Translations under genes and position numbers: made by a program
Assembly (NCBI GenBank): GCA_944367565.1
Contig: CALVWR010000011.1
Location: 92 to 64,091, forward strand
DNA length: 64,000 bases
Direction of reading: 5' to 3'
Source of the DNA: an uncultured Clostridia bacterium
GTDB lineage: Bacteria; Bacillota; Clostridia; Christensenellales; Borkfalkiaceae
The notes under the pieces: generated by a model
What the model was told of the DNA's origin: nothing
Seen by the model: the letters and a program-made list of their open reading frames with translations, nothing else
Database searches by the model: none
Part shown: one piece after another, positions 4,054-21,311 of the stretch
Layout of the letters: each line of letters begins with the position of its first letter
Position numbering within the stretch: position 1 is the stretch's first letter

Positions 4054-4938
4054 TTATTCGCTCTTTTCCCCGCCGGAATCGGCGGAGATCACTTCCTTTA
4101 GGCTGGCAAACAAGCCCGCCACGTTCTGGATCTCGCTGGGAATCACCAGTTTGGTGCTCTTGCCGTTGGCAACGGACTTCAGCGCCTCATATCCCTGCAA
4201 GGTCAGATAGGCGGCGTTGGGGTTGGCGTCGTTGATCATCTTGATGGCGGTGGCGGTACCTTCCGCTTCCGCGATGACCGCCGCCTTTTTTGCTTCGGCG
4301 CGGAGGATCAATGCCTCCTTTTCGCCTTCCGCCACGAGAATGTTGGAACGCTTTTCGCCCTCCGCTTTCAGAATCGCTTCACGCCGCTCGCGTTCCGCGC
4401 GCATCTGCTTTTCCATGGCGTTCTGAATGTCCTTCGGCGGAAGGATGTTCTTCAGTTCCACACGGTTGATCTTGATGCCCCAGGGATCGGTCGCTTCGTC
4501 GAGGATCACGCGCATTTTGGAATTAACGGTGTCACGCGAAGTGAGCGTCCCGTCAAGTTCCAACTCGCCGACGAGGTTTCTCAGCGTCGTCGCCGTGAGA
4601 TTCTCGATGGCGCGGATCGGGTCCTCCACGCCGTAGGTGAAGAGTTTCGCGTCGGTTACCTGAAAATAAACGACGGTATCGATCTGCATGGTGACGTTGT
4701 CCTTCGTGATGACCGGTTGCGGCGCAAAATCCGCAACGCGTTCTTTCAGCGAAATGGGACTGCTTGCCTTTTCGATGAACGGCAGGACAAAGTGGATGCC
4801 CGTGTCGAGAATTTTGCGGAATTTACCGAGCCTTTCCACGATGACCGCGGTAGATTGTCTGACCACGCGGATGGACGCGACGATCACGATAAAGATCACG
4901 ACTGCAAGTACGATCAGAATAATTTCCAAAGGTCCCAT
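4054..4938 (-). CDS. SPFH/Band 7 (stomatin/prohibitin-like) membrane protein
   Basis: 294 aa. N-terminal TM helix, then IVERLGKFRKIL...TKDNVTMQIDTVVYFQVTD and a coiled-coil EAEGE/AEAKK-rich tail, as in QmcA/YqfA-type proteins. Confidence 0.9.
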   Translation of the reverse strand: MGPLEIILIVLAVVIFIVIVASIRVVRQSTAVIVERLGKFRKILDTGIHFVLPFIEKASSPISLKERVADFAPQPVITKDNVTMQIDTVVYFQVTDAKLFTYGVEDPIRAIENLTATTLRNLVGELELDGTLTSRDTVNSKMRVILDEATDPWGIKINRVELKNILPPKDIQNAMEKQMRAERERREAILKAEGEKRSNILVAEGEKEALILRAEAKKAAVIAEAEGTATAIKMINDANPNAAYLTLQGYEALKSVANGKSTKLVIPSEIQNVAGLFASLKEVISADSGGEKSE

Positions 4939-4954
4939 AAAAAATCTCCTTTCT

Positions 4955-5392
4955 TTACGATTTCTGCACTTTTTCCACGATCAGACGGTTTCCCGTGATC
5001 CTGACCACGCGTACCGTTTCTCCGGCGGCAATTTCTTCGCCGTCCGATTCGGTATCGGCAGTCCACACCACGTCGCCCGATTTCACGCTGCCCGCCACGT
5101 TGAAGGAAATGGGCGTCAGCAGAACGAATTCCCTTCCGACGAGGGAATCGGCGTTGGTGCTTTCTTTATTGTTGCCGAGAACTTTTAAGATCGGCTTTCT
5201 GCACAGCACCAGCAGAATTGCCGACAAGGCGATAAACGCCACGAGCTGCCAGATCAGATCCACATCGACGAGGGCGAGGATCATCGCCAGCAATCCGCCG
5301 AAGATAAACCATACCGAAACGAGGTCGGTGGTGACAAATTCGATGATGATACTGAGCGCCACGACGCCCAGCCAGATATAGACCCAGGTCAT
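4955..5392 (-). CDS. NfeD-family membrane protein, partner of the SPFH protein
   Basis: 145 aa with 3 TM helices plus a C-terminal OB-like soluble domain (GREFVLLTPI...GSVKSGDVVWTA). It lies immediately upstream of the SPFH gene in the conserved NfeD-SPFH operon arrangement. Confidence 0.8.
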   Translation of the reverse strand: MTWVYIWLGVVALSIIIEFVTTDLVSVWFIFGGLLAMILALVDVDLIWQLVAFIALSAILLVLCRKPILKVLGNNKESTNADSLVGREFVLLTPISFNVAGSVKSGDVVWTADTESDGEEIAAGETVRVVRITGNRLIVEKVQKS

Positions 5393-5470
5393 AAAACCTC
5401 CTTTTTTACCGACGTCGTCCGTCCGCCGTCGACTTCATGATAACAGAACCGCACGCTTTTGTCAATCCGT

Positions 5471-7045
5471 TCACACCCGTGACGCGCTGTTGCTCCGCGG
5501 CAGGTTGTTCGCACGGAATAAAACCGTTTTCGGCGTGCCGTTTTCCGTGAAGAAAAAGACCTGATAAAATCCGGTATCCGTACGGCAGGAAAATTCCGAA
5601 ACGTTACCGCCGTACCCCGCGCCGGAAAAGACCGTATAGTTAAAATAGGCGTTTTTGACGGTATAAATCCCGCTCTCTTCGTTGCGCGTCACGCAGTAAC
5701 AGTCAATACGGTTTGCCGCCGTGTCGGCATTGCCCCCGATAAACAGTTCCGAGCCTGCGCTGGAATGTTCTTCTCCGTCAACGGAAAACATACTCAGATA
5801 CGTCGTGTTGTCCGTCTGATAGGTGTAATACAGCAGCGACGTGCCCGAAAGCGTTCTGCCCGTCGTGTAAAACTGCTGATTTGCGCCGTCGAAAAGCAAC
5901 AATGATCCGTCCGGCGCATAGAAATCCCCGCCGAATTGCATCAGCCCGCTGCCCAGATAGGTCTTTCCGTACGTCACGGAAAGAAGGCTTCCTTTTCCGT
6001 AGACGGCAACGGGGTTATCGCTCGATGAAGAAATGCAAAAAACGATGTGATCGCCGTCGTAAAAGACCGAATCGGCGCCGGGCATCAGTTTCTGCACGTC
6101 GGTATACAGCCCCACGCTTTCGTTAAAGCACTGTAAGAGAGATGGGCCCGCGCCGACCTGCCTTTCGACGATGGGAATGCTTTTCAGAAATACATAATGC
6201 TCGGCGTACGGCGGATAAAATACGTTCTGCGCGCCGGGTTCGATGATGTAATTCGCGTCGTATTCCGCGATCTTGCCGGAGCCGACGTCGTAAGACTTCG
6301 TGACGAGTTTCATTTTCGCCGCCCCGCCCATGGCGACGGTGTAATAATCGAAATCTTTTTCGCTGTCCGCCACCGGAACGGAATACTGCGTATAGATCTT
6401 GTTTCTCAGACACCATACGGGTACGGGGTCATCGGTAAGCGGGACGCCGAGCAGATTTTCAAGGCTGATCGTCCGGAGAAAATTCCCCGCTTTATCGAAA
6501 ACCGAATGAACGAGCGGCGAGGTGCTTTCCCGTTGCAGAGCATACCCTTCCAGCGGAAAAACGGCGTCGGACTCGGTAAGAACGGGATCGAGCGATTTCT
6601 TTTTGCAGACCACGGTGCCGTCGGGCCGGACGTAAATCATCGTCTGTCCGTTGGAAGAATAATACGGATTATCCCCCGAATATGCCTCGCCGTTCAGCGT
6701 GGCGCAAAGTCCCGTCCTGCCGTAAAAGAGAAACTGTTCCCCCTTTTCCACGACGTACAGTCCGTCGGTCAGTTTTGTAAACGGAAAGTTTTCGGTATAC
6801 AGCAGCCCCGTATGCGTGGAATAAAGCGCATACCGTCCGTTGTTTTCGGCGAGAATGATTCCGAACTTATCCACGGAAGTCGGCGTATATCCGTCCAGCG
6901 CGGTAATGGAATACGCCGATAATTTTATATCCTTGGGCGCGTCGTTGATCTTGCCGGAATTGACGGCGCATGCCGACGCGCAAAAAAGCATCGTACCTGC
7001 AAGGGCGAAGGACGCCGCAACGCGGGAAATACGGTTGATTTTCAT
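5471..7045 (-). CDS. Hypothetical secreted lipoprotein
   Basis: The internal start MKINRISRVAASFALAGTMLFCASAC has a lipobox-like signal and follows aaggagg. The body is Tyr/Gly/Thr-rich and beta-propeller-like, with no family recognised. The tracked ORF extends to 7105. Confidence 0.6.
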   Translation of the reverse strand: MKINRISRVAASFALAGTMLFCASACAVNSGKINDAPKDIKLSAYSITALDGYTPTSVDKFGIILAENNGRYALYSTHTGLLYTENFPFTKLTDGLYVVEKGEQFLFYGRTGLCATLNGEAYSGDNPYYSSNGQTMIYVRPDGTVVCKKKSLDPVLTESDAVFPLEGYALQRESTSPLVHSVFDKAGNFLRTISLENLLGVPLTDDPVPVWCLRNKIYTQYSVPVADSEKDFDYYTVAMGGAAKMKLVTKSYDVGSGKIAEYDANYIIEPGAQNVFYPPYAEHYVFLKSIPIVERQVGAGPSLLQCFNESVGLYTDVQKLMPGADSVFYDGDHIVFCISSSSDNPVAVYGKGSLLSVTYGKTYLGSGLMQFGGDFYAPDGSLLLFDGANQQFYTTGRTLSGTSLLYYTYQTDNTTYLSMFSVDGEEHSSAGSELFIGGNADTAANRIDCYCVTRNEESGIYTVKNAYFNYTVFSGAGYGGNVSEFSCRTDTGFYQVFFFTENGTPKTVLFRANNLPRSNSASRV

Positions 7046-8696: not shown

Positions 8697-9608
8697 TCAG
8701 AATTTGATTTCCGCTTTCTCCGCATATTCGATGATCGCCGCAAGTCTGTCCAGATCGTCGCGGGTATAGTAATCGATGTAGATCCTGCCTTTGTTGTCGT
8801 TTCCGATGGCGTTGACTTTCGTGCCGAGCACGCGTTGCATCGTGATGACGAGTTCCTTCAGTTCCAGCGAAAGTTCCGCTTTTTTCTTTTTCTTTTCTTC
8901 CGGCGGATTAAAATAATTTTTGACTTGCTGTTCCGCTTCCCGTACCGAACATCCGTCCTTGACGAAACGGTTCGCCATTCTGACCTGTTCTTCCGCGGGA
9001 ACCGTGATGATGGCGCGCGCGTGTCCCGACGAGAGCGCGCCCGATTCGACGAGGCGGATGACTTCCGGCGACAGCTGCAAAAGCCGCAGCGTGTTGGTGA
9101 TCGCCGGACGGGATTTGCCGATTCTGTCGGCAAGTTCGTCCTGCGTCATGCCGTAATCCTCCATCAAAGAACGCATGGCGGTCGCTTCCTCGATGGGATT
9201 CAGATCCTCTCTTTGCAGGTTCTCGATCAGCGAGATCTCCTTGATCTGCCGTTCGTTGTAATTTTTGATGATGACGGGGACCTTTTCAATGCCCGCAAGT
9301 TTGCTTGCGCGGTACCGTCTCTCCCCCGCAATGATCATGTATCCTTTGGCGTCCTGATTGACGATCAGCGGCATGATCACGCCGTGATGACGGATGGATT
9401 GCGCGAGCTCGTCGAGCGCGTCGGGATCGAATGACTTCCGCGGCTGATCGGGATTGGGGTGGATCGATGAAAGTTCCACTTCCTTTACGCTTTCTTTTCC
9501 TTTTTCTTCCGTTTCCGGTTCGTCAAAAAGAAGACTCTTTCCGTAATCTTCTTCCGTTTCCGCAAACAACGCGGAAAGTCCTTTTCCCAGACCTCTGTTG
9601 TTTTTCAT
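8697..9608 (-). CDS. parB: Chromosome partitioning protein ParB/Spo0J
   Basis: MKNNRGLGKGLSALF opening, IIAGERRYRASKLAG (the GERRxR CTP/arginine box) and HTH GMTQDELADRIGKSRPAITNTLRLL. The tracked ORF (to 9836) carries a spurious Arg-rich N-terminal extension. The ATG at 9608 fits the canonical ParB N-terminus. Confidence 0.95.
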   Translation of the reverse strand: MKNNRGLGKGLSALFAETEEDYGKSLLFDEPETEEKGKESVKEVELSSIHPNPDQPRKSFDPDALDELAQSIRHHGVIMPLIVNQDAKGYMIIAGERRYRASKLAGIEKVPVIIKNYNERQIKEISLIENLQREDLNPIEEATAMRSLMEDYGMTQDELADRIGKSRPAITNTLRLLQLSPEVIRLVESGALSSGHARAIITVPAEEQVRMANRFVKDGCSVREAEQQVKNYFNPPEEKKKKKAELSLELKELVITMQRVLGTKVNAIGNDNKGRIYIDYYTRDDLDRLAAIIEYAEKAEIKF

Positions 9609-9613
9609 AAATA

Positions 9614-10390
9614 TTACCCCTGTTTTGATGCCGTTCTTGCAAGATATTCGTCGGTAAGTGCGTCGTATGCCCGTGCGCCTGCGCATTTCGGATCGTGCAG
9701 TAAGATCGGTACGCCGTGACTGGGCGCTTCCGAAAGACGGATGTTGCGCGGAATCACCGTGTCGAACATACGCTTGCCGAAGTATTTGCGTATTTCTGCC
9801 GCGATCTGTCGGGAAATGACCGCGCGACTGTCGCACATCGTCAGGACAACGCCCTCGATTTTGAGTTTGTCGTTGAGATGTTTCACCACCAGCTTGATGG
9901 TATTGATCAGCTGGCTTAATCCTTCCATCGCATAGTATTCGCTCTGAATGGGAATGATCACCGTATCTGCCGCGGATAATGCGTTGATGGTGAGAAGCCC
10001 CAGCGAGGGAGGACAGTCGATGGCGATGTAATCGTAAAAACCTTTGACCTCTCCCAACATTTTTTTAAGCACGCTTTCCCGATCTTTCATGTAAACAAGT
10101 TCGACTTCCGCGCCGGCAAGATCGATGTTTGACGGCAACAGATCGAGATTCGCAATGGACGTCTTGATTGCGAGACTCGGGATGGGAACCTCGTCGATCA
10201 GCGCGTTGTATACGGAGTTTTTTACTTCCGATTTTGCAAAACCGAGACCCGTGGTCGCGTTTCCCTGCGGATCCAGATCGACGAGCAGGACCTTTTTCCC
10301 CTTTACGGCGAGATATGCCGCCATATTGACACAGGTCGTCGTTTTTCCGACGCCCCCTTTCTGATTTGAAAATGCGATAATCTTACCCAT
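9614..10390 (-). CDS. parA: Chromosome partitioning ATPase ParA/Soj
   Basis: MGKIIAFSNQKGGVGKTTT is the deviant Walker A motif. It also has DLDPQGNAT and IDCPPSLG. The 258-aa gene lies 5 nt upstream of parB. Confidence 0.95.
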   Translation of the reverse strand: MGKIIAFSNQKGGVGKTTTCVNMAAYLAVKGKKVLLVDLDPQGNATTGLGFAKSEVKNSVYNALIDEVPIPSLAIKTSIANLDLLPSNIDLAGAEVELVYMKDRESVLKKMLGEVKGFYDYIAIDCPPSLGLLTINALSAADTVIIPIQSEYYAMEGLSQLINTIKLVVKHLNDKLKIEGVVLTMCDSRAVISRQIAAEIRKYFGKRMFDTVIPRNIRLSEAPSHGVPILLHDPKCAGARAYDALTDEYLARTASKQG

Positions 10391-10426: not shown

Positions 10427-12625
10427 CTATTTCCCGGCGCCGTCGTGTTTGTCGCCGTCCGACTTCGCTTCGTCCGTTTCCTTCCCGTCTTCCGCCGATT
10501 CTTTTTCCTTGTCCGGTTCGTCCACGATCACGTTCTTCCCGCCTCTTGCAAACGGATTTTCCTGTAATGTCTTTTCGTTTTCGTCCATGAACTTTTCAAT
10601 CTCTTCCAAAGATTTACCGTCCATCAGCATATCCACTTCTTCCGTAAAGATCGTCTCCCGTTCGACAAGCAAACGCGCCATATTGTCGAGAAGTTTTCGG
10701 TTTTCCGAAAGGATGGAACGCGCTTTTCCCAACGACTCCATCACAATCTTATTGACTTCTTCGTCGATGATCCCCGCCGTCTCTTCGCTGTAATTCACAT
10801 GGGATGCCATATCCCTTCCGATAAAGACTTCCTGGTCGCTGCCGTAGGAAATCGGACCTACGCGATCGCTCATGCCCCATTCGGTCACCATCAGCCGCGC
10901 CCGTTTCGTCACCGCTTTGATATCGCCCGACGCCCCCGCCGAGATGTCTTTGATCACCAGCTCTTCCGCAACTCTTCCGCCGAGCGTCATGACGATATCG
11001 TCAAGCAGCTTCGCCTTCGTAAGATGATTGTCGTCGTTGTCCGGCATGGTCATCGTATATCCTGCCGCCTGCCCTCTCGGAATGATGGAAACTTCATGTA
11101 CCGGATCGCAGTTCGGTAAAAGTTTTGCAAGGATCGCGTGTCCCGATTCGTGATACGCCGTGATGCGCTTATCCGTTTCCGTGATAAGCCTGCTCTTCTT
11201 CTGCGGCCCCAACAGCACTTTGTTGATGCCCTCGTATAAATCCTTGTTCGTGATCACTTTCCTGTTCGCCCGCGCCGCGAGAATCGCCGCTTCGTTCAGC
11301 AGATTTTCAAGATCCGCTCCCGAAAAACCGCTGGTCATCCGCGCTACCGTCTTGAAATTTACGTCCGGCGCCATCGGCTTGTTCCTGGCGTGTACCTTCA
11401 ATATCGCTTCCCGTCCTTTTACATCGGGCGTGTTGACGTAGATCTGTCTGTCAAATCTACCTGGACGCAACAATGCCGGATCGAGAATGTCCGCACGGTT
11501 GGTCGCCGCCATCACGATGATGCCTTCGTTGGTCTCGAATCCGTCCATCTGCACGAGCAGCTGGTTCAGCGTCTGTTCGCGTTCGTCGTGACCGCCGCCG
11601 AGACCCGTACCCCTCTGCCGACCTACCGCGTCAATCTCATCGATAAACACGATACAGGGCTGACTCTTCTTCGCCGCGTCAAATAAATCGCGCACCCGCG
11701 ACGCTCCTACGCCGACGAACATCTCCACGAAATCCGAACCGCTGATCGAGAAAAACGGCACGCCCGCTTCTCCCGCAACCGCCTTCGCAAACAGGGTTTT
11801 ACCCGTTCCCGGAGGCCCTACAAGCAGTACGCCCTTCGGAATCCGCGCGCCGAGTTCGGAAAACTTTTTCGGATTTTTCAGAAATTCCACCACTTCCGCA
11901 AGTTCGGCTTTTTCCTCATCCGCCCCGGCTACGTCGGTGAATCGAACCTTCAGATTGTGCAACTGCCGCGCGTTGGTCTTCGCAAAATTCATGGCGCTCT
12001 TCGTCCCGCCGCCCATCGACCGCGATATAAAGATGAATGCCACCACCATAAGCGCAATCATGATCACATACGGAATGATCGACGACCAGATCGAGCCTGC
12101 ATTGGGATCGGTTCCTTCATAAACGATTTCCGCTCCGTCTGCGGCGCTCTGATTGATGTGCCGCAAGGCGTCTTTATACAGCGTTACATCGTCCGAATTC
12201 ATCAGAATCGTCGAATACGTGCGCACAATATCGGCCGCGCCGCCGGACAGACGGTATGTTACGGCAATATAAATATTGTAATTGCTGAATTGTACTTCGT
12301 TGATCTTTGCCGAAGTAGCGTCAATCCGATCCAGTTGCGCTTTCAAGGTCTTATCGGATCTCAGAATTATCATAGCATCCGCCTTACCCGTCGTCGTCGT
12401 CACGACTTCCGTGATCGGATTGCCTGCGGAATCCTGTCCGATTACTTTTTCGGTCCGGACAATTCCGATAGCTTGCTCAAAAATGCTGTTATCGATTTTC
12501 GTTGAGCCGGCACATGAACTGGTAAACGAAAACACGGCGATTAACGCAACAATAACGGCCAATACGCCTATTAAAATGCCGGTGTTGGATTTTTTCAATG
12601 ATGTCCCTCCTCGGAAAGATCGCAA
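10427..12625 (-). CDS. ftsH: ATP-dependent zinc metalloprotease FtsH
   Basis: [23 protein letters not shown] (Walker A), [10 protein letters not shown] (Walker B), SRH region [18 protein letters not shown] and HESGHA zinc site. The predicted ectodomain between the two TM helices is ~145 aa, longer than I expect for FtsH. The C-terminus is an acidic tail. Confidence 0.97.
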
Positions 12626-12734
12626 AAAGCCGATCCTCCGCTTTTTTAATTTTAATTCGCTCTGAATCGAAGAATACGGATATTATTACCGCCCTACATA
12701 CGATTCATAATGTATTTTTTTACTTTTGATGCGA

Positions 12735-13563
12735 AATCCGAAGAATTCCGCCGTCATAATTTTGCCTGTGTGGTTTTGTCCGGCGCCCGTCAGATTTCCT
12801 GCAGAATCTCACATGCCGAAGATCCCATCCTCGGATCGGCACTCACCGTGCTTTAGTTTACATGATTTCGGCTGAAGTCTTATCTAAACATCGGCGCACG
12901 TTATGATTTTGCATATAGATTCGACTGAATTTTGTCTGTGTAACGGTGCTTGTTTTCATCCCGTCTACGAGGTTTGTTTCAGTTGAATTTTTCCCGCGCG
13001 ACGGTGCTTGTTTTGGTTTCGCCTACACGGTTTCGGTTGAAGTTTGTGCAATGTCGGCGCACGTTATGTTTTCGCGTAAATGGCTTTGTTCGGCTCCTGC
13101 CGAATTTTCTGCCGGAAATTTTGCCGGCACGGTTTCGTCCGGCGCCTGTCAGATTTCCTGCAAAATCTCACCTGCCGAAGATCCCACCCGCGCGGTTTCG
13201 TCCGGCGCCTGCCGAATTTTTTGCCGAAAATTTTGCCTGTATGGTTTTGTCCGGCGCCCGTCAGATTTCCTGCAGAATCTCACCTGCCGAAGATCCCATC
13301 CTCGGATCGGCACTCACCGTGCTTTAGTCTACATGATTTCGGTTGAAGTCTTATCTAAACATCGACGCACGTTCTGTTTTTGCATATAGATTCGACTGAA
13401 TTTGTCTGTGTAACGGTGCTTGTTTTCATCCCGTCTACGAGGTTTGTTTCAGTTGAATTTTTCCCGCGCGATGGTGCTTGTTTTCATCCCGTCTACGAGG
13501 TTTGTTTCAGTTGAATTTTTCCCGCGCGACGGTGCTTGTTTTGATTTCGCCTACACGGTTTTG
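12735..13563. repeat. Non-coding mosaic of nested direct repeats
   Basis: A ~276-bp segment starting at 12760 recurs at 13231 (period 471 bp) with scattered substitutions. A 58-bp unit (ggtgcttgttttcatcccgtctacgaggtttgtttcagttgaatttttcccgcgcgay) begins at 12945, 13415 and 13473, with partial copies at 13003 and 13531. A ~55-bp segment (gtccggcgccygtcagatttcctgcaraatctcac.tgccgaagatccca) occurs at ~12778, ~13138 and ~13249. Confidence 0.9.
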
Positions 13564-14011
13564 CTGAAAACTCGCTTAAGCGTCGGTGCTTATCTCAAAA
13601 TGTACGGAGTTCGCAATATACGTAAAAACGCAAATAAAATACTCGAAATATTGTATTTAAATCAATTGCGCTCCAAACTGTACATTAATTTATAATGCGC
13701 GCCGTTTCTTTCAAATTCAGGCGCTCCGTAATTGCGTAGTATTTGTCCTGAAGCCTAAAATGACCTCATTAAATGAAATTTAATTTAACGTTTTATAAAA
13801 ATTCCGTATCAAATTATATAAATATAATTATTATAACGCGAAATCTGCCATCGTACAGGAAATGATAAACAAGGTCGCCGATAGACCGGCGGACAGTGCA
13901 TCTTTTCAATTACATCGGTGCGCCGGATGCGAAAGACATTGCCAACACTATGGGCAAGCGATTGAAAGTCAAACTATTAACCGCATAAGCTGAATTTCGT
14001 TCTGTTCTACC

Positions 14012-14197
14012 CGTTTTGGCTTTAAAATCATCAGGGGCGCCGAGGATTGTGTAGCATTTGCTAAATCCTGTTAAAAAGCATTACGCATTATAAAACTTCA
14101 ATTTTTACAGGATAACTTTAAAATTTTTACTTTATCCTGTTTTAAATTTATACATCATTCTGTTGCGCGTTTTGGCTTTAAAATCATCAGGGGCGCC
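14012..14197. repeat. Two perfect 30-bp direct repeats bracketing ATCCTGT-type inverted repeats
   Basis: cgttttggctttaaaatcatcaggggcgcc occurs at 14012-14041 and 14168-14197, each preceded by ttctgtt. Between them lie aggatt(15 nt)aatcct and acaggataa(16 nt)ttatcctgt. Confidence 0.85.
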
Positions 14198-15241
14198 TAA
14201 ACTTACACAGAATGCGTCTTGCTTTCAGAAGTGCCGTAAACTGTATTGGCGCAGAAATTTGTTTAAGCGCAACTTTAAATTTTCTCTAAAACACAGAACG
14301 CTGCAATTATAATCAATAAATATTTATTATTGCTATTTATTATTTATAAATAAAATAAAAATTTAACTAAACAATAAAAATCACAATAAAAACTGGTACA
14401 ATCTTAATATATCTGATCCGATTTTATGAGCGGATAATACAATATATAAAATATAAAGTAACCCAACTATATAAAAAAAAGATTGAAATAGCATTGAAAG
14501 AGATAAGTTTTATAACATAATTGCCTGAAATCAAATAAAATAAAATGCGCTAAAATATTACTTAAAATCTATCTTCTCTGTGCGTTAAAATACCCGCTAA
14601 AACATTCTTTTTTAGTTTACGTAAGTAAAGCGAAAATCATACATTGCGACTTATAAATTGTATTAAAAATATATTAAAAACATTTTATCACAATTGCCGG
14701 CAAAAGACAATATATTTTTCAATAATTTTACAAAAAAAACACATCATGAGAAAATTGGCATACAAAACAAAACTGAAATTTCTAACAATATACTAAATGA
14801 TACGACATGATCCAAATTAAAATTAAAGTTAAAACAAAAGCGCGTTATTGCGTTTTTAGTCATAAAAAACGCGCTTGTTAATTAAAATTTTAAAATTTAT
14901 TATTTTAACAAAAATGTACTAAAAATAGCCGACTATTTTTAAGTCCGATCATAATGTCAGGTTGCTACTTATATATTTTTAAAATTTTCTTTATGGCAAA
15001 ACAATTCAGATCTAACCGCAATACATTAAAACGATAAACAACCCCTTTATTTCAAGTAAACTTAATTAAATTACGTAGCAAAATGTTATGCAAAATAAAA
15101 TGCCACAATGCGCAAATAATTAAATGTAATTTTTATTTAAAAACTATGGATATTTATAAAAATAAACAAGCTGTTTTCAACAATTGTATTGTATAAACAA
15201 TGTCAAAGTGATTATCGGCATTTTTTATTTTGCTTTCATAA

Positions 15242-15257
15242 TGTTTCACGTGAAACA
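15242..15257. promoter_or_regulatory. parS: parS site 1 (ParB-binding centromere-like palindrome)
   Basis: TGTTTCACGTGAAACA is a perfect 16-bp palindrome matching the Firmicutes parS consensus TGTTNCACGTGAAACA. The palindrome extends to 18 bp (ATGTTTCACGTGAAACAT, 15241-15258). Confidence 0.85.
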
Positions 15258-15269
15258 TTTATCAGGCGA

Positions 15270-15285
15270 TGTTTCACGTGAAACA
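15270..15285. promoter_or_regulatory. parS: parS site 2
   Basis: An identical 18-bp palindrome at 15269-15286, 28 bp centre-to-centre from site 1. Confidence 0.85.
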
Positions 15286-16429
15286 TCGCTCAAAACATAA
15301 TAGTCTGAGACAAAATACAATATATTTTATGCCGATAAAAATTTATGCCATTCTGTCTCAGCTCGTTAAAATGCAAATTTTTTATGGTTATTTTATTCAG
15401 AAATTTAAGACAATTTGACGGTAATTTTAACGTAAACAATATAATACTATGGTTTCGGACGTTCTGCAAAGTATGTTTTTATTTTAAGCTGTTGCTTATG
15501 CTTGCACATTAGAAATTTCAGCAAGCATATAAACTATAAATTAATCAAAAAAATGGCGTAATTTTTGCAAGAATAATAATGTTTTAATTGTAAGATAGTA
15601 TAATTATAATTTTTTCGGCAACAAAGCGAATGTAAATATAATTTTGCATAGTAATTTATCCTTTAAAAATTAAAATATAGTAATGTGCGCATTTGATTTA
15701 TACAACTTTATGTTTAAAATATGACTTAATATGCATAAAAATTGGCAGGAAAATGTTTTTTAGTAAATAAAATTAAAATTTTTTGGTTTTAGTGATAAAT
15801 TATTTATAAAATACTGAAAAACTTATAATTTGGCGGTGAGAAAATGCGTTTTAATATTTTATTAGTGATTAAATTTTATGCGCTTAAATAAAAATATTTA
15901 ATCATTTTATTTTTAATTAAAGTACTGATTTTAAGCGTAATTTCTTTATTGAAAATAGGGCAATTTTATACAAATGATCACTCATAATAATTTTAACGAT
16001 GAAAATACATTATAATTAAGGGTCTATTTTGCGTATTTGATAAGTGCAAAATTTTAATAAAATTGATTTATTTAGCGCATGTATTTATTATATTTTTGAG
16101 CCAAAAAACTTATCTGTGTATTTTTTCTTTAAAAATTAAACAGCTATTTTGCGTGCGTATTTACGGTTTCTTTATAGTGGATCGGTTAAATTTTGCGTAG
16201 CGCAAAAAACAATTTATTTTTTTGATTTAAATAAGTTTGGCGCAAATATATTATAATTTTTATGCATGTTTGTTTAAAATAAGCGCAAAGCATTATTAAA
16301 GGATTATTTTATTTATTAAGTAGAAGCAAAATTAAAGCGAATATTTATAAATTAAATTATAATATATCTATATTTATTTTTTTGTTCTTTTCGGTTGAAA
16401 TGTTATGGAACAAGTTCATCCGAAATATC

Positions 16430-16458
16430 TTGCTATTGCAAAGAAATTATGTTACAAT
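16430..16458 (+). promoter_or_regulatory. Candidate sigma-A type promoter for the 16507 gene
   Basis: TTGCTA (16430-16435), a 17-nt spacer, then TACAAT (16453-16458), ~50 nt upstream of the ATG. Confidence 0.4.
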
Positions 16459-16506
16459 AATCAAAAAGTACAGTGTATGCTATTATAGCGGGAGCGAGAT
16501 GTTTTA

Positions 16507-17246
16507 TGCGTAAAAGCAGCAAGGCGGCAATTATTACGATGATCGTTTTATTTATTTTGAACTTTGTCGTGATTGTGCCGTATATTGTTTTTCCGGCAGG
16601 GAAATTGCCTGCATATGAAATGTTTGAGGAGCTTTCTTCTGTACGGACATGGCTTGATGAAAACGGTGTTGATGTTCAGGATGTGGGGAAAGACAGTTAT
16701 CTCGGCGATACGGAGACGGTGGATTCCGTTAATGTTTCGTTCCTTTATGCAGGAGAATACTATCGGTTGTCGGCTCATATTTTTGAAACGAAAGAGGCGT
16801 TGCGGAATTATTATGCATCACGAACGGGATACGGAACGGATCTGGATCAAGGGGAATACTTTACCGCATATTATTTTTCCACTTCTTTCTGCGCATTTGA
16901 AGGAAACAGACTGATTGCGTTGTCGGGCGGGGATTATCTGGCGTTTTTGCAGGTTTTCGGAGATCTTTTCGGAAAAGAGGAGAATGCGACAAGTTCGGAA
17001 AGCGGACAGAGCGCGGCAAGTTCGGAAAGCTGTCGGAGTGCGATGGTTTCGGAAAGTGGGCAGGGCGCGGTAAGTTTGCAAAGTGTACAGAGCGCGATAG
17101 TTTCGGAAAGCAGGCAGGGCGCGGTAAGTTTCCAAAGTGTACAGAGCGCGATAGTTTCGGAAAGTAGGCAGAGCGCGGTAAGTTCGGAATGCGGACAGAG
17201 TGCGGTGCTGAAGATCGTGAAGGGGGCGCAAAATGTTTCAATTTAA
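16507..17246 (+). CDS. Hypothetical membrane-anchored protein with a C-terminal 9-aa tandem repeat region
   Basis: MRKSSKAAIITMIVLFILNFVVIVPYIVF is an N-terminal anchor. A soluble domain of unknown family follows, then eight nonapeptide repeats. G+C is lower than in the surrounding core genes. The tracked ORF starts at 16473. Confidence 0.6.
16992..17207 (+). repeat. 8 x 27-bp in-frame tandem repeat
   Basis: Units start at 16992, 17019, 17046, 17073, 17100, 17127, 17154 and 17181. They encode SSESGQSAA / SSESCRSAM / VSESGQGAV / SLQSVQSAI / VSESRQGAV / SFQSVQSAI / VSESRQSAV / SSECGQSAV. Confidence 0.9.
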
Positions 17247-17997
17247 AAAAGGAGAGATTGCAACTTATATAATTTTGTTGTTTTTAACGGGATTATTCAG
17301 CATTTTATTGTTGGCGAAAGGATATCCCGCATGGTTTTTGTTTGCGTCGGCGGTAGTGATTATTCCCTGTGCGGGAATGCTCATCGCAATTTTGTGCAGG
17401 AACAAAGTACTTTCTGGGGCGGAGGCGTATCTTTCGGAAGAAAATTATAAAAAATTCGATGCTTACGCGGCAAAACATGAAAATCGGTATTTTTTTATAA
17501 GAGTTTACGCAATACTTTCCTTGCTTGAACGTGGAGATGCCGACGGTTTTCTGAAAGCATACGAAGCGTATGGAGAAAAAAACAAAATATCCAAAGACTG
17601 GCTGTATAAGCTGGAGGCATATAAGGTATTTTATCAACTTTTGAGCAAAGGAGAAATTTCGTTGAAAACCGTGAATCGGTTAGAAAGTACGATATCGGCT
17701 GAGGAAGTGGAGCGGGAACGGTGTATCTGTAAGATGCTGGATTACTATAATAAGGGGGATTTGGAACGGGCGATCAAGCAGCTCGGATGGTATGAAGAGA
17801 AAGGCGGCAGGCGATTTTTGAATTTTATGTACGGTTATGTTTGCAATCTGATCGAAGAAGCGGCAAGCGAAGGAGAGCTGCAAGTCGGAGAAAAGGTAAA
17901 AAGTGCGGCTTATAATGATTTTTTGCGGCAGGGAGCAAGTCGGTTTGACGCGTTAGCAAATCAAAGAAAACGGAAAACGGAGCGTAATCCTGAATAA
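17233..17997 (+). CDS. Hypothetical membrane protein with a helical-repeat (TPR-like) soluble domain
   Basis: 254 aa, with an aaggggg RBS. It has two N-terminal TM helices and an alpha-helical Lys/Glu/Tyr-rich remainder. It overlaps the upstream gene by 14 nt. No family recognised. Confidence 0.55.
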   Translation: MFQFKKGEIATYIILLFLTGLFSILLLAKGYPAWFLFASAVVIIPCAGMLIAILCRNKVLSGAEAYLSEENYKKFDAYAAKHENRYFFIRVYAILSLLERGDADGFLKAYEAYGEKNKISKDWLYKLEAYKVFYQLLSKGEISLKTVNRLESTISAEEVERERCICKMLDYYNKGDLERAIKQLGWYEEKGGRRFLNFMYGYVCNLIEEAASEGELQVGEKVKSAAYNDFLRQGASRFDALANQRKRKTERNPE

Positions 17998-18088
17998 AGA
18001 GAAAGCGTAAAGAGTGAAGGTGCGCGCAATGGAAATATAAAATTGTCGTGCGCTTAAAACCGCGTTCTGTTTTGTATAGCGTAAAAAA

Positions 18089-18244
18089 GAAATTGTCAAA
18101 TCAATTGCAACACCGCATAAGATCTTCTTGAAATAAATCTATCGGGGTTTTAAAATATAAAACCTGATGAAATGTCAAACCAAGTGCAACACCGGATAAG
18201 ATTTTCTTGAAATAAATCGATCGGAGTTTTGAAATATAAAACCT
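18089..18244. repeat. Two tandem ~78-bp repeats carrying IS30 terminal-repeat-like sequence
   Basis: Units at 18089-18165 and 18166-18244. Each contains tgtcaaa(t/c)caa(t/g)tgcaacaccg(c/g)ataag, similar to the right end of the intact IS30 (cttgacaattcatcttgcaactgatttgc, 978-1006). Confidence 0.7.
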
Positions 18245-18249
18245 TTTTA

Positions 18250-18281
18250 GACCCGGCGTTAATTAACGTCGGGTTTTTTTC
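18250..18281 (+). terminator. Hairpin plus T-run (intrinsic terminator-like)
   Basis: acccggcgtt aatt aacgtcgggt forms a stem with one mismatch and is followed by ttttttt. It abuts the truncated 3' end of the IS30 remnant. Confidence 0.55.
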
Positions 18282-19125
18282 AAAGTTGCGGGACTTATTC
18301 CGGACAAGATTCTGTCTTTATGACAGAACTCTATGAACAGACCGCTCATATTCGTTTGTACCTTTCTGCCACGCACAATACGGATCTGCAAAAAGATTTT
18401 GCGTTTCAAGCCGTTTTCTATTTCTATCTAACAAGCAAATTCGCTTCCACGGTTTAAGGCGATGGTTTTTACCGTTATTTAGGGGAGTTTGCTCAACATG
18501 GAGCTCATCGCATTTGCCATCGTTTCACCTGTTCTGTCCGCAATTTTCATCGCTGTATAATACCTTATTTTTCTTTCCGCAAGCGTGGCAAAGCATGCTT
18601 TGCTTTTCCCTTTGCGCCGAAAAGCAATGTTTCCAAAACCGAAAGATCGACGCCGTCAAAGAAGATAAATGCGTGACGGAAAAAGAAAAAAGCGGTGCAC
18701 GCGCCCGGCTAAACCGGCTCCTTGAAAGAATTGCAAAAATATCGAGAAAATAAATTTGTGCTATAAACAAGAATCGAATGACAAAAAATTATCGGAGCAG
18801 AATTCATAAACTTAAGTGTAATGAATTTACAGAAGATTTTATGTTTGCGAAACCGATACATACACCATGGTTACGGATATATTACAAGGCTCCTTTGCAC
18901 AAAAGGATATTGAAATGATGAATTATAAAACAAAAAATAAATTTTTGTGCCGTATACGGATAATATCTCGGTATATCCCTGAAAAACGTACAGTTCCGTC
19001 ACAATTCTCGATACCGAACTCACATTTCTACCGAGAAGTCTTGCAATTTCCCGATAACTTTTTCTTTTTATATAGTATTCTTGTAGCCGACAGGATTCTT
19101 CCATGGTAAAATGATGATAGTTCAT
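18282..19125 (-). pseudogene. Decayed, 3'-truncated IS30-family transposase gene
   Basis: The 84-aa N-terminal fragment MNYHHFTMEESCRLQEYYIKRKSYREIARLLGRNVSSVSR is ~80% identical to the start of the intact copy. The reverse complement of 18571-18615 is identical to 541-585 over 45 nt. Further similarity runs down to ~18282, interrupted by frameshifts and stops. Confidence 0.85.
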
Positions 19126-19694
19126 ACATATCTCCTTGGCAAAATTTGACTTGGCAACTCTATTTTACCACAGATTTGTAGGAACTTTTTTTCTTTTATG
19201 TTGCGTTTATATAGTATAATTTATTAAATAAAACCCGCGTTTTTCCGTGGAAGGAAAAACGCGGGCTACTCGTTATTCGATACAGAGTCCATATTCTAAG
19301 TATGCATCATAATAAATGAAAGAAAAACATCCGACGAGACTTTTTATATAAACTTTTTCGGGATGAAAGCGTTGAATGGGGATTCTTTCCATAACGAAAG
19401 TTGTCCGTTTTACTTATGCGGACGGCTTTTTAAAATCGGGGAAAATGTCACGGATTTGCTTTTTTGCCGAAAAGCACGCGAATACCGTTGCGAGATTTTT
19501 CCGCTTATGATAAAATAGAGAGAGCGGGGAATGAAAAACGGTCGGATAATCAAACGTAAGAAGGGGGATACGGCAAGGGCGCCGCGATCGCGTCAAGGTT
19601 GACGGCATGGCGTCAAAAACGGAACAAAAAGAATGAGGACGATTTTATAAGAAAGCGGTGACCGACGGACGGAAGCGCTCTGACGGGAGGAACT

Positions 19695-21311
19695 ATGCAC
19701 AGAGAAGGGAAAGCGCATTATTTTAAGAATACCTTTTTGCCCTGTGTGGCGAGCGGGTTTGCGGTGGGACTGATTGTCGGGATCGCCGTATTTTTTTTCA
19801 AGTATGCGGCGGATTTTTTATCGGATGAATCCGCTTTGATTTACGGATACATAAGGGAAAATCCGACCTTTATCCCGTTGTTGTTTTTAGGGCTTGCGAT
19901 CCTGGCGACGGCGGAATATTTTTTTCAGAAATTTGCGCCGGAAACGAGGGGCGGAGGAATTCCGCGCAGCGTGGGCGTGATCCGGGGAATCGTGACGTTC
20001 CGTTGGCTGAGGACGGCGATCGGTACGGTGTTCAATTCTTTTTTGAGTTATTTTGCGGGATTGCCGTTGGGCACGGAAGGGACGTCGGTATTGCTGGGAT
20101 GTTCCTTGGGGGCAGGCACGGCGGCGTTGCCGATTTCCGGGCGGAATTTTTCCAAATACATGATGACGAGCGGCGCCTGTGCCGGGTTTGCCGTTGCGAC
20201 GGGCGCGCCGCTTTCGGGAATCTTGTTTTCCGTGGAGGAAACGCACAAGCGTGTTTCGTCTACGATTATGCTTGCTTCGATTTCGGCGATTCTTTCTTCG
20301 ATATTCGTATCGCGGCTGTTGTCTGCGGCATTGGGAATAAATCTCGCGCCGTTATTCGGCGTAGCGGCGGAGACGTTGCGTTCGCCCGCGATCGGAGAAG
20401 TGTGGGTGATGCTGCTTGCAGGCGTAATCGTGGGATTGTTTGCAACGGGGTTTTGCCGGCTGACCGAGGTGTTGTCGAACTTATTCGGAAAGAAGTGTTC
20501 CGCTGCGGGGAAGCTGATGCGGTTCATCGTGTTGTTCTGGCTTGTCGGGACGGCGGGATTTTTTCTGGAAGGGACGCTTTACGGCGGCCACGGGATCGTG
20601 GAAAAGGTTTTTGCCGGAGGGATGGGACCGGGTGAAATTGCCCTGACGCTGACGATCCGGCTGGTGCTGGTGGTGCTTTGTTCGGCGATCGGCGCATCGG
20701 GCGGACTGTTTATTCCCATGCTATCTCTCGGCGCGCTTGCGGGAGCGCTTTCTGCGAAGCTGTTCGCGGTGATGGGGATGTCCGCGGAAGTTACGCCGTT
20801 TGTCGTACTTGCCTGTACCGTGTCGTTTATGGGTGCGAGTACGAAAGCGCCCATCACGGCGCTGGTGTTCGCCATGGAATCGACGTGGCGGTTCACGAAT
20901 TTGTTTTATTTGGCGTTCACGGTATTTATTTCGTACTTTATCACGGAGCTTACGCGTACACGGTCGGCGTACGAATTTATGACGGAACGGATGGCGAAGC
21001 GGCAGGCGGAAGGCAAACATTTTTTCTACGGAGATTTCAAGGTGACCGTGACGGCGGGATGCTTTGCGGAAGGGAAAGAAATTTCCGAACTGTTGTTGTC
21101 GTCCAACATAACGGTACGCAAAAACATTTCGTTTGAAGACGAATCGGAAGTTTATCTGGGAAACGAGAGAAGACTGCGGGAAGGCGACGAGCTGATCTTT
21201 ACGGCGCTGATGAGCGACGAAAACGCGGTGCGTTGCGAATTGGAAAATTATTTCGGGAAACAGGAGTGGGAAAAACATGATACTGAGAGCGGTGAACTTC
21301 GGGGAGTTTGA
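19695..21311 (+). CDS. ClC family voltage-gated chloride channel / H+-Cl- antiporter with a C-terminal TrkA-C-like domain
   Basis: 538 aa. Carries GGGIPRS, GLPLGTEGTSV and GAPLSGILFSVEE, which are ClC selectivity-filter-like motifs. A soluble C-terminal ~110 aa follows. RBS gggagg. Confidence 0.85.
   Translation: MHREGKAHYFKNTFLPCVASGFAVGLIVGIAVFFFKYAADFLSDESALIYGYIRENPTFIPLLFLGLAILATAEYFFQKFAPETRGGGIPRSVGVIRGIVTFRWLRTAIGTVFNSFLSYFAGLPLGTEGTSVLLGCSLGAGTAALPISGRNFSKYMMTSGACAGFAVATGAPLSGILFSVEETHKRVSSTIMLASISAILSSIFVSRLLSAALGINLAPLFGVAAETLRSPAIGEVWVMLLAGVIVGLFATGFCRLTEVLSNLFGKKCSAAGKLMRFIVLFWLVGTAGFFLEGTLYGGHGIVEKVFAGGMGPGEIALTLTIRLVLVVLCSAIGASGGLFIPMLSLGALAGALSAKLFAVMGMSAEVTPFVVLACTVSFMGASTKAPITALVFAMESTWRFTNLFYLAFTVFISYFITELTRTRSAYEFMTERMAKRQAEGKHFFYGDFKVTVTAGCFAEGKEISELLLSSNITVRKNISFEDESEVYLGNERRLREGDELIFTALMSDENAVRCELENYFGKQEWEKHDTESGELRGV

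Follow-up and report, generated by a model that had tools for sequence, protein, structure and literature searches.

What are two identical palindromes doing in a long AT-rich, non-coding tract near the partition genes parA and parB? The question is raised by a stretch of 64,000 nucleotides from an uncultured Clostridia bacterium of the Christensenellales (hereafter the window), which represents nearly all of one 65.6-kb metagenome scaffold. In the initial annotation, the palindromes were read as a pair of parS sites, and their arrangement was thought to resemble a plasmid-style centromere. Judged from the sequence and from related genomes, the palindrome pair is very probably a set of chromosomal ParB loading sites, i.e., the chromosomal centromere (parS).

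The parS pair and its ParB

Two copies of ATGTTTCACGTGAAACAT were found with their starts 28 bp apart and a 10-bp gap between them (Table 1). Both contain the 16-bp core TGTTTCACGTGAAACA, which is a perfect palindrome and matches the parS consensus TGTTNCACGTGAAACA without any mismatch, and 12 bp separate the two cores. The coordinates, consensus fit and dyad symmetry given in the initial annotation were all verified. When the 64 kb were scanned for TGTTNCACGTGAAACA with up to two mismatches, only the parS pair matched, each site on both strands because it is palindromic. In dinucleotide-preserving shuffles, the mean number of matches was 0.13, and none of 100 shuffles reached four. For genome scanning, the parS query string is TGTTNCACGTGNAACA.

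The predicted functional unit is the 16-mer, and the 18-bp palindrome is an accident of the AT-rich context, because the A/T bases just outside the 16-mer are not conserved among 126 related sites. Within the species, positions 15211-15306 were invariant across five sequences, against about 4-5 variable sites per 100 bp in the surrounding tract.

The pair lies 2.6 kb upstream of the ftsH-parA-parB operon, and the distance of about 5.6 kb to parB given earlier holds when measured to the start of parB. ParB of the window is a 303-aa protein starting at 9608, according to gene calls on identical contigs; the longest open reading frame (ORF) at this place (379 aa, 8697-9836), which begins with GTG and shares about 220 nt with parA, is an artefact of ORF finding. 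The protein scored 192.6 bits with the TIGR00180 model (cut-off 58), and its score with the Noc model was under the cut-off of that model. The closest solved structures were Spo0J of Bacillus subtilis (6SDK, 2e-53), to which the GERRYRA motif aligns, and Spo0J of Thermus thermophilus (1VZ0). For ParA, every NCBIfam match was below its cut-off, and the exact protein sequence was present on 21 contigs.

The identification as parS is based on a perfect consensus occurring twice, far above chance, beside canonical parA-parB and conserved at the orthologous position. The features that characterize a chromosomal parS site are thus found together at this locus, namely the consensus palindrome, a nearby ParB with the GERRxRA motif and helix-turn-helix (HTH) domain accompanied by a soj-type ParA, and conservation at orthologous loci. 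As for a position near the replication origin, the pair coincides with the minimum of the total GC skew and with the divergence of genes, but the window lacks dnaA, the tract lacks DnaA boxes, the GC skew at third codon positions (GC3 skew) is ambiguous, and the 65.6-kb scaffold is all that could be read.

From the established ParABS pathway, each 16-bp palindrome would be bound by a single dimer of ParB, whose gene lies 5.6 kb away. ParB bound to cytidine triphosphate (CTP) would then close as a clamp and slide onto the flanking DNA, leaving the site open to another dimer. ParA would move the partition complex formed in this way, and the complex would probably load SMC. With sites 28 bp apart and 12 bp between the cores, simultaneous occupancy would be possible, and two sites may double the rate of nucleation and provide redundancy, although this benefit over a single site is our inference.

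Several points weigh against the chromosomal centromere as set out here, or limit it. ParB binding, ParB spreading and SMC loading at the pair are predictions from sequence. The parS scan covers the 64 kb of the window, further sites may be present elsewhere in the genome, and proximity to the origin is no more than a possibility. The spacing is not conserved among relatives (25-46 bp), which argues against a fixed cooperative geometry, so that no specific cooperative geometry is implied, and the advantage of two sites over one is likewise a supposition.

Table 1. Positions of the parS pair, the par genes and other features in the window
Feature	Position	Strand	Description
parS-1	15241-15258 (core 15242-15257)	.	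Perfect palindrome TGTTTCACGTGAAACA with incidental A/T flanks; invariant in five same-species sequences; orthologues in relatives
parS-2	15269-15286	.	Palindrome identical to parS-1, 28 bp away; invariant in five same-species sequences
parB	8697-9608	-	303 aa, Spo0J-type, GERRYRA CTP motif; Pfam ParB_N and HTH_ParB
parA	9614-10390	-	258 aa, soj-type small Walker ATPase; Pfam AAA_31/CbiA/ParA
ftsH	10427-12625	-	First gene of ftsH-parA-parB; Pfam AAA and Peptidase_M41
AT-rich non-coding tract	about 13600-16470	.	About 2.8 kb, 19-30% GC; window about 52% GC
Companion element	15303-15393	+	About 90 bp, left part dyad-symmetric; only portion of the tract conserved across species apart from parS
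Element, first part	15305-15316		ctgagacaaaat
Element, inner part	15325-15340		ttttatGCCGataaaa
Element, third part	15350-15361		attctgtctcag, followed by cgttaaaatgcaaattttt
ttatcggcat	15212-15221	+	Left half of a 10-bp inverted repeat; the right half, 15329-15338, forms the inner core of the element, and the two enclose the parS pair
Direct repeats	12700-13560		GC-richer, between tract and ftsH; units of about 470, 112 and 58 nt, 87-97% identity
30-bp direct repeat	14012-14041 and 14168-14197		Perfect repeat of CGTTTTGGCTTTAAAATCATCAGGGGCGCC, 156 bp apart, at the left tract edge
Gene 16473	16473-17246		No Pfam or NCBIfam match; GC3 skew very strong (about +0.4); hydrophobic N-terminal stretch, a putative membrane segment; 27/54-nt tandem coding repeat at 16991-17206
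Gene 17233	17233-17997		Adjacent to the preceding gene; no Pfam or NCBIfam match; GC3 skew very strong (about +0.4); hydrophobic N-terminal stretch, a putative membrane segment
79-bp tandem repeat	18089-18244		Two copies (89% match) in the non-coding stretch 17997-19695

Conservation of the cluster in related loci

A search for relatives of ParB, with one genome per species, gave 80 loci, about 68 of which are Christensenellales-type loci with ftsH-parA-parB. Fifty of the Christensenellales-type loci had at least 1.5 kb of sequence upstream of ftsH and were evaluable, and a parS match with at most one mismatch was counted as a site. A parS site was present upstream of ftsH in 46 of the 50, and in 43 of the 50 the sites formed a tight cluster (28 pairs, 14 triples and 1 quadruple) with a spacing of 25-46 bp, within 60 bp. 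The closest relatives carry pairs 27-29 bp apart, as in the window. All clusters lay in intergenic DNA rich in AT, at distances of 200 bp to 5.4 kb (typically 250-1000 bp) upstream of ftsH. Outgroup loci from Oscillospiraceae/Eubacteriales also contain parS pairs, 25-40 bp apart and just upstream of parAB.

Given the clusters in 43 of 50 relatives and the lack of variation at the sites within the species, the twin arrangement is, as far as sequence comparison can tell, inherited and under selection in the lineage rather than peculiar to the window. The initial annotation had considered a tandem intergenic pair unusual; this is not supported, in view of the 2-4 sites at the same place in these relatives and the paired sites of the outgroups. 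No parS-like site was found inside parB or elsewhere in the 20-kb Christensenellales-type loci (numbered L001-L068), and the parS cluster is for this reason taken as the local centromere. Helical phasing of the sites was considered and rejected, as spacings of 25-46 bp show no fixed phase.

The genes around the cluster indicate chromosomal synteny, with ftsH, gltX, rsmG and rplM near the locus in relatives. The position of ftsH immediately upstream of parA-parB is conserved as a three-gene cluster throughout L001-L068; the Bacillus neighbourhood is typically noc/gidB-soj-spo0J. The common Christensenellales layout is gltX(+), DUF1256(-), CvpA(+), the parS cluster, then ftsH, parA and parB, with both neighbours of the cluster co-oriented. 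In most relatives, gltX, DUF1256 and CvpA are located directly upstream of the parS cluster (in L022, for example, at about 4300-6200). The lineage of the window is rearranged: DUF1256 (YyaC-like) and CvpA lie downstream of parB (1045-2506), and the parS cluster, together with the conserved element beside it described below, is inverted. On the far side of the tract, the two adjacent genes 16473 and 17233 have homologues in L006 and L002. On other contigs of the same species, the genes were 99.3-99.5% identical.

The companion element and possible transcriptional control

The pair was correctly described as lying in a long AT-rich non-coding tract, which covers about 2.8 kb at 19-30% GC. It contains no tRNA and no ORF longer than 59 aa, and a search of Rfam at E up to 10 gave no family. 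The tract is present in all same-species contigs with an identity of 96.6-98.2%, and it is therefore not an assembly artefact. When positions 12500-19700 were compared with all loci by BLAST, cross-species similarity within the tract was confined to 15222-15408, a conserved island of about 190 bp made up of the parS pair and an adjacent element (15303-15393). The remainder of the tract could not be aligned even to relatives with 90-92% identical ParB. In several related lineages (L002, L003, L004, L010, L015, L045, L055 and L066), the non-coding DNA around the module has likewise expanded to 2-5 kb, and these expansions turn over too fast for alignment. Between the tract and ftsH, the copy number of the GC-richer direct repeats (Table 1) varies among same-species contigs, many more copies are present in L081, and spurious ORFs, including 12946-13389, lie inside these repeats.

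The consensus of the companion element is AGAAT-N33-ATTCTGTCTCAG-NNCGT(T/C)(A/T)AAAT-GACAATTTTTAAA, with the 3' end also written GACAATTTTT and a core of ATTCTGTCTCAG...TAAAAT. A sequence-only model (R1) was built from 28 copies. It scored 68.3 bits on the window copy (E=6.6e-19) and detected the element in at least 41 loci at E <=1e-8, every match being beside a parS cluster, with zero matches elsewhere in 1.28 Mb and zero in the outgroup loci. Copies in relatives are found, for example, at 1883-1975 in L053 and 6505-6596 in L022. The element is duplicated in L052, L068 and L045, and each additional copy has its own parS site. Of 41 loci, 38 have it facing ftsH, and the module of parS and element is inverted as a whole in the window, L003 and L004.

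Two inverted repeats had been pointed out around the pair. The repeat ctgagaca (15305-15312)/tgtctcag (15354-15361) is where it was described and proved to be the outer dyad of this clade-wide element, and atgccgataa is its inner core. The 10-mers ttatcggcat and atgccgataa also stand at the positions given for them (15212-15221 and 15329-15338), but the bracket that they form was rejected as a general feature, since it was significant only in the window (10/10) and in L003 (9/10), was borderline in L006 (9/10), and was not significant in other loci.

A hairpin or structured RNA in the element was rejected as well. Rfam gave no match, whether at the gathering threshold or with E relaxed to 10, and RNAalifold returned zero consensus pairs for the element. 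The DNA fold of 15296-15400 was marginally better than that of shuffles (z = -1.96). In a sequence-only alignment of 41 copies, 61.8% of cells were paired, compared with 63.5% in column shuffles (3' columns), and no excess covariation was found; isolated apparent compensatory changes in L018, L035 and L008 were not general. Because there is no consensus pairing or covariation, the dyad appears to be a property of the conserved double-stranded sequence, and it fits a protein-binding site or a promoter/operator. The element may be a ParB-controlled promoter/operator, which is our leading guess, or alternatively the site of an accessory factor. A literature search for the element core and for the oriC of Christensenella gave nothing relevant. 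The companion element is previously undescribed and is the one new item at the locus.

It is possible, though rather unlikely, that the parS cluster doubles as, or mainly is, a transcriptional control site, a role that would be compatible with that of a centromere. ParB sliding from the pair would then regulate a promoter in the element. In most relatives this would amount to autoregulation of ftsH-parA-parB, and in the rearranged lineage of the window to regulation of the divergent genes 16473 and 17233. In at least 41 loci a parS site is found about 30-200 bp away from the element, and in 38 of 41 the element faces ftsH; this arrangement suggests such control, as does the absence of the element from the outgroup loci. 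Sigma-70-like hexamers can be read by eye on both strands of the element, nnGCCA-16-TAAAAT on the forward strand and, after an A-tract, TTGTCA-16-CAGAAT on the reverse strand. In addition, the intergenic parS3 and parS4 sites of Pseudomonas aeruginosa repress neighbouring promoters (PMC7022226). On the other hand, promoter-like matches in the tract are at the level of chance (29 found, 23.2 expected). The forward -35 hexamer is unconserved, and the -10 hexamer has a variant, CTAAAT, without the key A2. The distance from the element to ftsH ranges from 334 to 5001 bp, another, weaker conserved block lies nearer to ftsH (60-200 bp upstream), and the module of the window is inverted and 2.6 kb from ftsH. 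A role of the element as the ftsH promoter was thus not established.

Tentatively, the parS cluster and the element might together constitute a composite centromere module that is specific to Christensenellales. The element would then either bind an unknown centromere-associated factor or act as a ParB-gated promoter firing into or beside parS; we regard this as a doubtful proposal. If it is true, ParB occupancy would be coupled to the expression of ftsH-parAB or of a non-coding transcript, and the fast-changing AT-rich tract would serve as a gene-free landing zone for sliding ParB clamps.

The origin hypothesis and comparison with known centromeres

That the AT-rich tract is oriC, with the parS pair inside it, seems improbable. 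The cumulative total GC skew has its minimum at 15200-15400, exactly at the pair, and most genes on either side point away from the tract: 9 of the 11 to its left run leftward, and about 80% of those in the 48 kb to its right run rightward. The non-coding flanks also switch their G/C bias at the pair (plus strand, 261 G/301 C on the ftsH side and 156 G/110 C on the other side), and the extreme AT richness could ease unwinding. However, no DnaA box TTATCCACA was found in 13600-16470 with up to one mismatch, and no cluster of such boxes anywhere in the window. No Bac_DnaA match was obtained among the 30 large ORFs of the window that were scanned, and there was no dnaA in the Christensenellales loci within the fetched flanks (up to 10 kb on either side of parB). 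The latter search used a DnaA Walker-A signature, and it recovered dnaA in three outgroup loci. To the left, the search for dnaA ended with the scaffold, of which the window is nearly the whole, and no record was found for the protein at 15-977. DnaA-box density was flat around the parS clusters of about 45 relatives.

The GC3 skew shows no clean switch: on the plus strand it stays positive in most of the minus-strand genes on the left side, ftsH being the exception. Both neighbours of the cluster are co-oriented in the common layout, and the skew switch in the flanks was driven by loci with divergent neighbours. Because the module is inverted and has different neighbours in the window, the divergent orientation and much of the skew step can arise from rearrangement of the lineage alone. 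Moreover, no part of the tract but the parS island is conserved, even in comparison with the relatives with 90-92% identical ParB. Overall, the DnaA-box scans, the dnaA search and the GC3 skew gave no positive support for oriC, and the skew minimum is confounded with gene orientation and a lineage-specific rearrangement. In a few relatives, groups of DnaA boxes (TTATCCACA/TTATCAACA, perfect or with one mismatch) were seen 0.1-1.5 kb from parS (L003 2286-2608, L015 4944-4964 and L056 4941-4969), and the window and the aggregate of loci showed no such groups near parS. These could be origins in L003, L015 and L056, or chance occurrences in AT-rich DNA.

The identification as a chromosomal centromere can be further examined against known systems. 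The premise that chromosomal parS sites are usually single and often intragenic fits B. subtilis, where about ten single parS sites are dispersed and several of them are intragenic, including one in spo0J. The window shares with the Spo0J-parS system the identical 16-bp consensus TGTTNCACGTGAAACA, a GERRxRA ParB whose nearest solved structure is Spo0J, and an adjacent soj-type ParA. It differs in that 2-4 sites (across the clade) are packed within about 100 bp of intergenic DNA, with none in parB, and in that the operon is ftsH-parA-parB instead of noc-soj-spo0J. As a general statement, the premise fails, as clustered intergenic sites are described in published chromosomes. A review notes that most species have more than one parS site near oriC (PMC7022226). 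Caulobacter crescentus has at least five clustered parS sites, two strong ones lying within 260 bp, with about 2 kb of ParB spreading per site, and its cluster was located about 8 kb from ori by ChIP-seq (PMC5815017). It resembles the window in having several strong sites clustered near the par operon, and differs in that it has no described counterpart of the companion element and that the sites of the window are known from sequence alone. In Corynebacterium glutamicum, ten parS sites are spread over 35 kb; nine are intergenic, and a single one is sufficient (PMC7083940). In P. aeruginosa, parS1-4 are located near oriC and the intergenic sites repress adjacent promoters (PMC7022226). Both species are like the window in having multiple, mostly intergenic sites, and unlike it in that their clusters span kilobases (35 kb, and four sites near oriC), compared with spacings of 25-46 bp here.

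Tandem short inverted-repeat ParB sites are also found in sopC of the F plasmid, and in this respect the pair is similar to the F sopC/P1 parS group of type Ia plasmid centromeres. Unlike those centromeres, the locus has no 43-bp repeat unit, no box A/box B architecture of heptamers and hexamers and no large HTH-ParA, and both its context and its consensus are chromosomal. Of the traits of plasmid-type centromeres (F sopC, P1 parS and R1 parC), neither a repeat-unit array, nor box A/box B with integration host factor (IHF), nor plasmid residence or a plasmid type of Par protein was found for the pair and the locus. That the tract is foreign DNA of plasmid origin, carrying a plasmid-style centromere as the initial annotation had proposed, is therefore highly improbable. 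A GC content of 24% against about 52% around it would suit foreign DNA, and tandem sites superficially recall the sopC repeats. In 43 of 50 relatives, however, orthologous clusters occupy the same place on the chromosome, and the sites match the chromosomal consensus TGTTNCACGTGAAACA. ParA belongs to the short chromosomal type, ParB resembles Spo0J, and the best plasmid-borne ParB reaches 42% identity, compared with 55-92% for chromosomal relatives. Only the palindromes iterate: the spacer is unrepeated, the flanks differ, and neither iterons, nor a second motif class, nor another repeat family was found around them. No plasmid or phage record showed similarity to the tract, on which ground its foreign origin was rejected. 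On every feature that could be examined in the sequence, the locus is a member of the chromosomal parS family.

With the pair read as chromosomal parS, the centromere of an uncultured Christensenellales genome can be annotated with confidence. The comparison also indicates that the centromere in this abundant gut lineage is concentrated in a single tight cluster of 2-4 sites upstream of ftsH-parA-parB, and the cluster would be a convenient natural minimal centromere for work on ParB loading, chromatin immunoprecipitation (ChIP) or Hi-C in cultured relatives. As a practical correction, tandem intergenic parS sites are normal on chromosomes and should not be taken as a plasmid-like flag. If the companion element is a ParB-controlled promoter or the site of an accessory factor, a well-studied system would gain a new cis component.

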